The notes beneath the pieces were generated by a model that was not told where the DNA came from, searched no databases, and saw nothing but the letters and a program-made list of their open reading frames with translations. Of a stretch of DNA of 64,000 bases, positions 11,141 to 13,750 are shown piece by piece; the stretch's first letter is position 1, and each line of letters starts with the position of its first letter. Source of the DNA: Dictyostelium discoideum (taxonomy: Eukaryota); assembly GCA_000004695.1 (NCBI GenBank), contig CM000152.2:512001-576000 (forward strand). The letters run 5' to 3'. The translations under genes and the position numbers were made by a program.

Positions 11141-11580
11141 AAAAAAAAAAAAAAAAAGATATTTTGGTGTATTTTTAAATTTGGAATAATTTTTTTAAAA
11201 CTAAAAATATAAAAAAAAATACCCCCATGTTTACATTCCCGGCGGTTATTGGATATTATTAAAAATCTATTTGGGTTTTCGTATTTTTTTTTTTATTATT
11301 AGAATAAAATTAATTCGGTTCCGCTCTCAAAGTTTGCGTTAAACAAATTTTTTTTTTTTTTTTTTTTTTTTAATTTTGTTTTGTTTTGATTTGTTTTTTT
11401 TTTTTTTTCAATTTTATTTTATTATTTTATTTTATTTTTAAAAAATAAATTTATTATAATGTGTTATTTAATATTAATTCAAATGTTTTTTAATCATTTG
11501 AATTTAAATATCAGATGTTTTAATTGTTTTTTAGTTGAATTAAAATATCAGATGTTTTAATGATACAAGTGACATATCAA
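11141..11580. repeat. Copy A of a ~440-bp segmental duplication (partner at 13420..13750); it contains an internal 35-bp sub-duplication (aaatatcagatgttttaattg appears twice)
   Basis: Direct comparison of the two copies shows shared blocks, including cccatgtttacattcccgg(c/a)ggttattgga, attttcgtattttttttttattattagaataaaa(t)taattcggttccg, and ttaaaaaataaatttattataatgtgtt...taatattaattcaaatgttttttaatcatttgaatt(t)aaatatcagatgttttaat. Identity is roughly 85%, with poly-T length differences and indels. Confidence 0.8.
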
Positions 11581-13260
11581 AATAATAATGATATTCCTCA
11601 TAGAAACTATTTAATAGTTTAGTAAAACCTTCTTTATTATCTAATTCATAGGTAAATGAATTTAAAGTACAATTACAATGAATTAAAATATAATCCAATA
11701 AAGTTTTATTGTATCCAACTAAAAATGATTTACTTGTATTATGAGAATGATCAATAACCTTTTTTAATGAATTTAATTCTCTTGGTGGATAATAATTAAA
11801 ATTCATTGCTAATGGATGGGCTTCATCACTTTCATCTAATTGAGCATAAATATCAGATTTAACAATTAATTTCTCTAAATGACTAAATGAATCTTTAATC
11901 TTGGAGTATGGTGTAGTTCTAATGATTGTTGTATAATATTGATTTTTTAAAAATCCATTATTATTATTATAATAAAAAATATTGAATTTATTATATCTAT
12001 GTTCTTTTACTGAATTTAAATAGGTATCAAGAATATCACTTTTATAATTACTTAAAATTTTTGATAATAGTTTTAAAAAATCCCAACAAACCATTGAAAT
12101 ATTCTTTACACTATTCCAAATTATTTGTTCAAATTCATTATTTTTTTTATCAATTATAAAATCTTGATTTAAAACCCTTTTTATAATTTTTGAAATTAAA
12201 ATATAATTATTAATCAATTTTAATGATGATTCACCATGGTTGATGGTTGTATCCATAGTTGTTGTTGTTGTTATTGTTGTTGTTGTTGTTATTGTTGTTG
12301 TTGTTGTTGTTGTTATTGTTGTTGTTGTTGTTGTTGTATTAGGTTCGTTATCATCATTATTATTATTATCACTAATATTATTATTAATTTTTAAATATTT
12401 ATTTATAACTGATACAAATATTCCAACTTTTCTTGGTTTTCCACCTGGTAAACAACGTATAGTTGAATAACCATTTGCAACTTAAATTGATTTTAATAAA
12501 TCTACTTGGTATTGATTTTTAATATTCATTTTTTCAATTGTTTGAGGTAAAACTTTAACAAAAGAAAGATTTAAAACTGAATCACTACTAATTAAAGATG
12601 ATAATTTATCCTATTATTAAATTATAATAATTATTAATGTTAATATTATTTATTATTATTATTATTATTATTATTATTATTATTATTATTATTATTATTA
12701 TTATTATTATTATTATTATTATTATTATTATAATAATTATTATTATTATTATTATTTGAAAATAAATATTGAATAGAATCTCTAATTAATGTTGATTTAT
12801 CTAATAATATGGTAAATATGAAACTGAAATATTCATTTCCTATATATTTATAAGAGAATACAGCAAAATAACTTAATTCATGTTCATAGCCTTCTTTTTT
12901 TTGATGAAAAGTGAACCAGTCAAAAATAATAAATAATCTAATAATTTCATTATCTGAATTAATATAACTGAACCAAAATTCAATTGCTTCATCGTATGGT
13001 ATTATATCATAACAATAATTTTTAAATCCAAATTCTATCCATAATTTATCATATGTAAAATCTGAAATATTGGTTAAATTATTTTCTTTGATTTTTTTTA
13101 TTATTGATTCTCTATTATTTTTATAACCACCATTATAATATTGTTTTGATGGTTCGGAAATAATTGCTCTATAAAAATTTCTTAATTTAAATGTTTTAAT
13201 TTTATATCTGACATCTTTAAAAATATCAAATAAATCTTCGAGAATTTGTTCTTGTGTTAT
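11540..13260 (-). CDS. Hypothetical N/T-rich protein, probably multi-exon. The 5' end and internal splice sites are unresolved. The 3' exon is the 238-aa ORF 11540..12256, which extends upstream in frame through a poly-Thr tract
   Basis: On the minus strand, an open frame at 12757..13260 (ENITQEQILEDLFDIFKDVRYKIKTF...SIQYLFSNNNN...) has no ATG and has a stop immediately upstream, implying an upstream exon. A pure (AAT)n/poly-Asn tract lies at 12640-12760. The terminal ORF (MDTTINHGESS...KHLIF) is preceded in frame by ...NEPNTTTTTTITTTT. No domain is recognised. Its last 13 or so codons lie inside a sequence duplicated from the dhk 3' end (see the repeat features). Confidence 0.35.
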
Positions 13261-13419
13261 GTTTTCTTATTTGATTTTTTAATATTATTTATTATTGTTT
13301 CTCTTTATCATTAAATTCTTTATGAATATTAATAATTGGGTTAACAATAACATAGGAATTATATGTATTTATTTTCATTGTTTCTTTATATACATATAAA
13401 GGATTTTAAAAAAAAAAAA

Positions 13420-13750
13420 AAAAAAGAGATTTAATTTTTAATTTTGGAATATCATTTTTAAAAAACTAAAAAATATAAAAAAAACCCATGTTTACATTCC
13501 CGGAGGTTATTGGACATTTTTTAAAATCTTTTTGGATTTTCGTATTTTTTTTTTTATTATTAGAATAAAAATTAATTCGGTTCCGTTTTTTGATTTGATC
13601 TTTTTTTAAATTTTATTTTTTAATTTTATTTATTTTATTTTATTTTATTTTTAAAAAATAAATTTATTATAATGTGTTTTTTTAATATTAATTCAAATGT
13701 TTTTTAATCATTTGAATTAAAATATCAGATGTTTTAATTGGTTTTTGCAA
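13420..13750. repeat. Copy B of the same segmental duplication; it overlaps the last ~16 codons and the 3' flank of the histidine-kinase gene
   Basis: Same shared blocks as copy A. The minus-strand stop codon of the dhk ORF (…KTSDILIQMIKKHLN*) is encoded inside the repeat. In copy A the homologous bases encode …SLVSLKHLIF* of the neighbouring ORF. Confidence 0.8.

Follow-up and report, generated by a model that had tools for sequence, protein, structure and literature searches.

A 64,000-nucleotide stretch of the Dictyostelium discoideum genome (NCBI GenBank assembly GCA_000004695.1, contig CM000152.2, positions 512,001 to 576,000 of the forward strand; hereafter the window, with coordinates counted from its first letter) carries two diverged copies of one block on either side of the remains of a gene. 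One copy (copy B) holds the 3′ end of a hybrid histidine-kinase gene (dhk) together with its 3′ flank, and the other (copy A) adjoins the truncated end of the gene between them, which we call gene Y. We read the locus, with a probability of about 0.7, as an ordinary local rearrangement scar beside a pseudogene, formed before the split of the two assemblies that carry it. The smaller share of probability left over goes to expression of parts of Y with borrowed start or end signals, or to a function of the GC-rich core of the block that is hidden from sequence. The second assembly is NCBI GCA_054883475.1, whose locus L001 is 99.8% identical to the window. All genes around the duplication are on the minus strand, intergenic DNA in the window has a GC content of ~15%, and coding repeats of the poly-N and poly-Q type are abundant.

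The duplication was delimited by gapped alignment, which pairs 11136–11532 with 13404–13746 in the same orientation:

13404–13746, minus strand: copy B, the original; the dhk end, an AATAAA-rich 3′ flank, a GC-rich island and a terminal T18 run in minus-strand sense (alignment and BLASTN)
11136–11532, minus strand: copy A, the derived one; the same block, including an untranslated copy of the dhk terminal codons (alignment)
11324–11369: insert found in copy A only; 24 unique nucleotides (CTCTCAAAGTTTGCGTTAAACAAA), then a T-run

The alignment has 313 matches, 20 mismatches and 78 gap columns, which corresponds to 94% identity over the 333 ungapped columns and to 76% with gaps counted. When copy A was compared with the whole window by BLASTN, copy B scored 338 bits (E 5e-95), while the best other match reached 95 bits and all the others were low-complexity T/A tracts. 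The 29-nt core of the block, CCCATGTTTACATTCCCGGNGGTTATTGG, occurs exactly twice in the window, with no occurrence expected from 100 shuffles. The similarity is thus far above the compositional background and has a defined orientation, and the block is a local segmental duplication. The earlier note had described a same-orientation repeat 2.2 kb away, and such a repeat is present, copy A lying 2.26 kb further downstream in the sense of dhk. The ~440 bp that it gave for the block does not hold: copy B measures 343 bp and copy A 397 bp, the latter being longer by the 46-nt insert and by T-tract indels. The 24-mer CTCTCAAAGTTTGCGTTAAACAAA of that insert is absent from copy B and has no second match anywhere in the window. 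The block contains the last 18 2/3 dhk codons and the stop, rather than the ~16 codons first proposed, followed by the poly(A)-signal region and ~285 bp of intergenic DNA with the GC-rich island.

The direction of copying follows from the kinase gene:

13688–19677, minus strand: dhk, the gene whose tail was duplicated; domains PAS, HisKA, HATPase_c and Response_reg; L001 gives it 1969 aa
13688–13746, minus strand: dhk terminal codons, ...QKPIKTSDILIQMIKKHLN, and the TAA stop, within copy B (translation)

The gene spans the open reading frame (ORF) 13688–17170 and the upstream ORF 17254–19677, and the former runs into copy B without interruption and in frame. The kinase is possibly DhkB, judging from its length of 1969 aa. 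No D. discoideum protein was returned for any of our queries, the kinase included, and a statement below that a protein has no homologue therefore concerns relatives outside D. discoideum. The closest database proteins to the kinase belong to Polysphondylium violaceum (70% identity) and other dictyostelids; the D. purpureum orthologue was not among the top matches, though the database includes D. purpureum proteins. The peptide encoded by copy B (...GMNDFLQKPIKTSDILIQMIKKHLN) closes the receiver domain. It is conserved both in P. violaceum, whose kinase (P0001) ends in ...GMNDFLQKPIKTADSLIQMN, and in another dictyostelid, whose kinase (P0002) ends in ...GMNDFLQKPVNCAALMRMIKKHME. In copy A, a stop now interrupts these codons when they are read in the dhk frame (KTSDI*IQM). 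The conservation of the copy B codons in other species makes copy B the source and copy A the derivative. In P. violaceum, the dhk orthologue is followed by a MatE gene, and the locus is not syntenic with the window.

The two assemblies date the event in relative terms. Over 19.4 kb, 2 mismatches and 12 indels distinguish L001 from the window; across 10800–14000 there is just one single-nucleotide polymorphism, and both copies are present. Copies A and B differ from each other by 6% substitutions and several indels, compared with about 0.01% between the assemblies, so the duplication is not recent. Among the explanations offered by the earlier note was a recently duplicated 3′-untranslated-region or terminator module that creates a chimeric gene end; structurally this is what we find, since a duplicated 3′ end forms the end of a neighboring ORF, but "recently" has to go. 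Its suggestion of an assembly artefact is rejected because A and B are no longer identical and GCA_054883475.1 contains the two of them as well. Mis-joined or collapsed AT-rich repeats are a frequent assembly error, and direct repeats of ~340–400 bp on either side of a 1.84-kb internal segment bear a superficial likeness to a mobile element with long terminal repeats (LTRs). Yet 20 substitutions and several indels separate copies that are both found in a second, non-identical assembly, the right-hand repeat carries kinase codons conserved in P. violaceum, the internal segment has its homologue in a cellular orphan gene, not in gag or pol, and contains no Pfam domain, the repeats lack TG...CA termini, and no further copies occur in the window. 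We therefore regard an artefact or an LTR-like element as extremely unlikely. An LTR retrotransposon or LTR pair was accordingly dropped as a candidate on the grounds of the host kinase codons in one repeat and the missing gag/pol and TG...CA. A retrocopy of the 3′ end of dhk mRNA was also rejected, because the block ends on the sense strand in a run of T18–20 rather than of A and runs far past the poly(A) signals (~265 nt beyond the first AATAAA in the dhk sense). A larger tandem duplication taking in Y, followed by decay, was rejected as well: 9407–11135 and 11562–13403 retain no DNA or translated similarity to each other.

The DNA between the two copies holds two long ORFs, which belong to a single gene:

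11562–13266, minus strand: gene Y, disrupted homologue of D. purpureum DICPUDRAFT_76175 (P0121; 630 aa, hypothetical protein), located by TBLASTN
12611–12768, minus strand: intron-equivalent stretch of Y; an (AAT)n tract read as poly-N, then TAA at 12648–12646, with an AG at 12612
12482–12484, minus strand: in-frame TAA interrupting Y (…DLLKSI*VANGYS…)

DICPUDRAFT_76175 was found by an exhaustive HMMER search as the one relative of the 238-aa ORF (11540–12256). A word-indexed protein search with the concatenated intervening ORFs found nothing (the index needs shared words), a family search with the D. purpureum protein as query returned only that protein itself, and the 238-aa ORF is not on record as an exact product. 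The ORFs between the copies have no Pfam domain and no homologue besides this one protein; on these searches, Y would be a genus-restricted orphan gene. In a TBLASTN comparison with 9–14 kb of the window, residues 9–160 of the D. purpureum protein match 13251–12763 (E 1.6e-24) and residues 287–539 match 12403–11558 (E 5e-24). Because both ORFs align colinearly to it on the minus strand, they are parts of one gene. Their stop-free runs of 313 and 206 codons exceed the maximum of 159 seen in 1000 shuffles, which indicates that Y was coding until fairly recently.

Several features argue that Y no longer works. No ATG lies in frame in the DNA that leads from the upstream stop to the conserved N-terminal motif, the position at which the D. 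purpureum protein starts with ATG. The single intron of the D. purpureum gene (phase 0, after residue 186) coincides with the frame change in Y; no GT donor is present anywhere in 12790–12600, despite the AG at 12612. Homology stops at 11558, two codons at most from where the duplicated DNA begins, whereas the D. purpureum protein runs 91 residues more; its residues 540–630 have no TBLASTN match in 9000–11560, and no ORF for the rest of Y lies beyond copy A. With its start codon and intron donor missing, an in-frame TAA, and an end ~90 residues early, Y is most likely a pseudogene, a reading that relies on colinearity with an intact gene plus disabling lesions; any expression of it is putative. 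In a simulation of neutral drift at the divergence of copies A and B (~3% per lineage), ~3 new stops are predicted (5–95% range 1–6), a figure that fits an inactivation of Y at roughly the time of the duplication. Y resembles the known non-processed (duplicated or unitary) pseudogenes in keeping long open frames, colinear homology to the intact D. purpureum gene and the intron position, and in bearing several independent disabling changes. The earlier note had described 11540–12256 as an unrelated ORF whose end is supplied by the duplicate. Its end is indeed formed by duplicated sequence, but the ORF would be the 3′ remnant of the disrupted, C-terminally truncated Y rather than an intact gene.

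The junction between copy A and Y is not a simple one:

11535–11561, minus strand: nested second copy of 13712–13738, 27 of 27 nucleotides identical, between copy A and gene Y (three related sites in the window, none expected)
11450–11455, minus strand: first AATAAA downstream of the ORF stop, from the dhk 3′ flank; counterpart in copy B at 13663–13668

Only 2 nt separate the end of the main copy A from the nested copy, and the main copy has gained one substitution in the part that matches the 27-mer. The last six codons of ORF 11540–12256 (LKHLIF) and its TAA stop come from the nested copy and not from the main copy A, and their reading frame is shifted by one base against that of dhk. The claim that the copied block supplies the final codons and stop of this ORF thus stands as far as derivation from the dhk tail is concerned, with the qualification that the source is a separate 27-nt re-duplication read in another frame than dhk. 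The AATAAA motifs inherited from the kinase flank lie 85–125 nt past the stop. Non-coding DNA nearby stays free of stops over a median of 9 codons, so a frame that runs on for six is what chance would give. At the far junction, both copies start in a run of A18–20 on the plus strand. No clear microhomology survives at the junction of copy A with Y, the distal boundary being the A18–20 homopolymer.

A short extra fragment templated from the same donor (27/27) thus sits directly between copy A and Y. The nested copy at one junction, together with a far block end in an A/T homopolymer, suggests template switching. The event would be a single template-switching repair or replication event, of the kind known as microhomology-mediated break-induced replication (MMBIR), fork stalling and template switching (FoSTeS), or the "filler DNA" of synthesis-dependent strand annealing (SDSA). 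A 3′ end at a break in or next to Y may have primed on the nearby kinase tail and copied 27 nt; the strand would then have dissociated, re-primed a few bases upstream and copied the whole 343-bp block up to the T-run, where it could have been captured by homopolymer pairing. Like documented MMBIR, FoSTeS and SDSA insertions, the block has its donor near in cis (2.2 kb) and in the same orientation, a 27-nt nested donor copy at one junction and a homopolymer, a possible microhomology, at the other, and lost or truncated sequence next to it. It differs from them in that the event is here reconstructed from anatomy, with a divergence of ~6% obscuring the exact microhomology. Two histories would fit such an event. 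Either a resident Y was broken in its coding region and patched with the kinase tail, with loss of the last ~90 codons, or a fragment of a Y-like gene came in from another place and landed downstream of the kinase, with renewed copying of the target block. The second is slightly favored because the D. purpureum homologue lies in a non-syntenic neighborhood, its locus sharing no flanking genes with the window.

Several points count against this reconstruction. We make no choice between the two histories, as synteny between these species is generally poor. The template-switch mechanism is suggested by junction anatomy alone, in which later mutations blur any microhomology. The truncation of Y rests on one homologue, the D. 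purpureum protein, at 28–35% identity, and the automated annotation of L001 has two protein-coding genes here (196 and 296 aa), so that parts of Y may be expressed. The reconstruction does not account for the 46-nt insert of copy A, which may have been gained there or lost from copy B. Finally, the copy number of the block and of its core refers to the 64-kb window.

The alternatives that make a working gene of Y start from the two annotated models:

13517–12646 (L001 5897–6768): gene model of 196 aa
12474–11540 (L001 6940–7874): gene model of 296 aa

Both products can be rebuilt exactly from the window sequence. In a functional 3′-end capture, the ORF 11540–12256 (238 aa from its ATG, or the 296-aa model) would be expressed, with the kinase tail giving its C-terminus, stop and poly(A) signals. 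The ORF has an internal ATG and a stop-free run far beyond chance length (313 codons, against at most 159 in shuffles), the dhk-flank AATAAA motifs follow 85–125 nt beyond its stop, and an annotation pipeline places a 296-aa gene here. Long ORFs are, however, expected in a pseudogene that has drifted by only ~3%, and this one makes up the C-terminal two-fifths of its gene, the N-terminal part being found upstream and in a different frame. The parent gene lacks a start, an intron donor and ~90 terminal codons; the 296-aa model depends on a 44-nt intron with a weak GTATCA donor; the six codons before the stop match chance expectation; and the ORF has neither a Pfam domain nor a homologue except the D. 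purpureum protein. Like chimeric genes that arise by 3′-end capture, the ORF enters the last codons of another gene and then meets that gene's AATAAA motifs. It differs from them in its six out-of-frame codons and in a recipient, Y, that is disrupted by the missing start, the missing intron donor and an internal stop. Since the recipient appears to be disrupted upstream rather than intact, the locus does not qualify as a chimeric gene of this class, and we consider functional capture unlikely. The N-terminal part of Y could be rescued in another way, if the GC-rich core of copy B were a 22-nt first exon, as annotated in GCA_054883475.1 (ATGTCCAATAACCTCCGGGAAT, with a GTAAAC donor, spliced to 13214). 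This 196-aa model starts from an ATG at the core (13517–13515) and continues over a 281-nt intron; it reproduces the annotated product exactly, in matching phase and with an A-rich start context (AAAAAATG), and would give a start to the 206-codon N-terminal ORF of Y, which has no ATG of its own. On this model the block would span the end of the kinase gene, the spacer after it, and exon 1 together with part of the intron of the following gene. Yet the 281-nt intron would excise the residues EQILEDLFDIFKD, which are homologous to residues 9–21 of a D. purpureum protein that has no 5′ mini-exon. Four of the six non-ATG codons are rare (share of the synonymous set: TCC 5.8%, AAC 13.6%, CTC 3.8% and CGG 2.0%), the GTAAAC donor is weak, and the splice model is a prediction. 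A mini-exon is very unlikely in our view. The two L001 "genes" between the kinase and the leucine-rich-repeat (LRR) gene are most likely gene-caller artefacts, fragments of one pseudogene.

The remaining alternatives give the GC-rich core a function of its own. It lies at these positions:

13485–13513: core of copy B, GC 0.48; beside it the minus-strand ATG (13517–13515) used in L001 as the start of the 22-nt first exon
11224–11252: core of copy A, GC 0.52; ATA in place of the minus-strand ATG of copy B

The core, alone or with a neighboring GGTTCCG island, could be a functional non-coding element kept in both copies, such as a promoter of the Dictyostelium upstream sequence element (DUSE) type for a small plus-strand non-coding RNA (ncRNA), a transcription-factor site, a terminator or an insulator. 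It is a clear compositional island, with 14–15 G+C in 29 nt in a block of 15% GC (binomial p about 2e-5). The published DUSE consensus is [AT]CCCA[AT]AA (PMC3188802, PMC7919456), and a Class I ncRNA driven by it should carry a DUSE ~60 nt upstream of the RNA start. Copy B has ACCCATGT, which fits the consensus at 6 of 8 positions, and copy A has CCCCATGT, in which the first position is also lost; in copy A, moreover, a T-run follows a 55-nt stretch that starts ~60 nt downstream. The full consensus is therefore found in neither copy, and the window contains neither of the Class I motifs CCTTACAG and CTTACAGC. The putative downstream RNA also differs between the copies by the 46-nt indel. At the gathering threshold, Rfam returned for the whole window only the tRNA-His gene at 37066, and a permissive search (E<=10) of 10700–13800 and 9400–11200 gave chance-level matches only (malK-II, E 0.45; 6A, E 7.9). 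No tRNA or pseudo-tRNA was found near the copies, and folding of both cores on both strands was no better than that of shuffles (z-scores +0.5 to +1.7). The core pattern has no further copies in the window and had no matches in metagenome and prokaryote-genome collections, neither of which holds Dictyostelium DNA.

Conservation speaks against such an element as well. The cores of the two copies are 94% identical, and the AT-rich flanks 91–97%; as the core does not stand above its flanks, shared descent accounts for its presence in both copies and there is no sign of selection. Comparable GC islands are common, with 19 in the ~22 kb of non-ORF DNA of the window. The core would thus be a passenger of the duplication. 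The "unusually GC-rich conserved core" of the earlier note is a real compositional island present in both copies, though not one of special conservation; the proposal of a conserved 3′ regulatory or ncRNA element gains no support from its level of conservation, from Rfam, from folding or from the partial DUSE. Like DUSE-driven Class I RNAs (PMC7919456, PMC3188802), the block has a CCCA-containing GC-rich motif in AT-rich intergenic DNA with T-runs downstream. Unlike them, it has no [AT]CCCA[AT]AA, no 11-nt motif of the CCTTACAGCAA type, no terminal stem and no Rfam or folding signal, and its downstream segment is unlike between the copies. We give little chance to a functional core. A similarly low probability goes to the block being a working module as a whole, with the GC-rich island and the TATA-like and oligo-T sequence around it serving as a promoter, a first exon or an unrecognized small-RNA promoter, of which the duplication would have set a second copy downstream, and with the remnants of Y on the way to becoming one or two new short genes. 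This would be the rebirth of a gene from a pseudogene by means of parts of the kinase next to it: copy B would lend the start codon, copy A the stop and the poly(A) site.

Some features of the window lie outside the duplication. Exact DUSE matches number 10, all outside the cores (for example, ACCCATAA at 25900 and TCCCATAA at 32236, both on the plus strand); most are probably in coding sequence, and no Rfam ncRNA adjoins them. The tRNA-His (GTG) gene at 37066–37137 on the plus strand is the sole Rfam/ARAGORN match in the window. Directly beyond copy A, 10835–11075 is a 240-bp island whose GC content of 0.33 is roughly double that of intergenic DNA. ORFs of at least 36 aa, Rfam matches, excess folding on either strand and similarity to Y or its D. 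purpureum homologue are all absent, and the island may be what is left of an old exon, or a regulatory region. The ~2.1 kb between the start codon of the LRR gene (9406) and the end of Y (9407–11535) have no called gene in the second assembly; the gap is unusually long for a gene-dense genome and includes several small GC-rich islands, for example 10926–10960 and 10130–10290. In D. purpureum GL870981.1 (L003 ~10560–10640), we spotted by eye a putative tRNA-like gene (…gggaatcgaacccag…) on the opposite strand, ~300 nt past the DICPUDRAFT_76175 stop.

Nothing about the locus would come as a surprise to specialists. For annotation, the value of the locus is that two called "genes" are most likely the fragments of one pseudogene, and that the double occurrence of a GC-rich island is not by itself a ground for calling a conserved element. 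The 340-bp direct repeats could recombine and so delete the pseudogene between them. In our reading, the locus is a clean and datable duplication of the template-switch type in an extremely AT-rich genome, in which the donor, the nested fragment and the homopolymer breakpoint would all be preserved.

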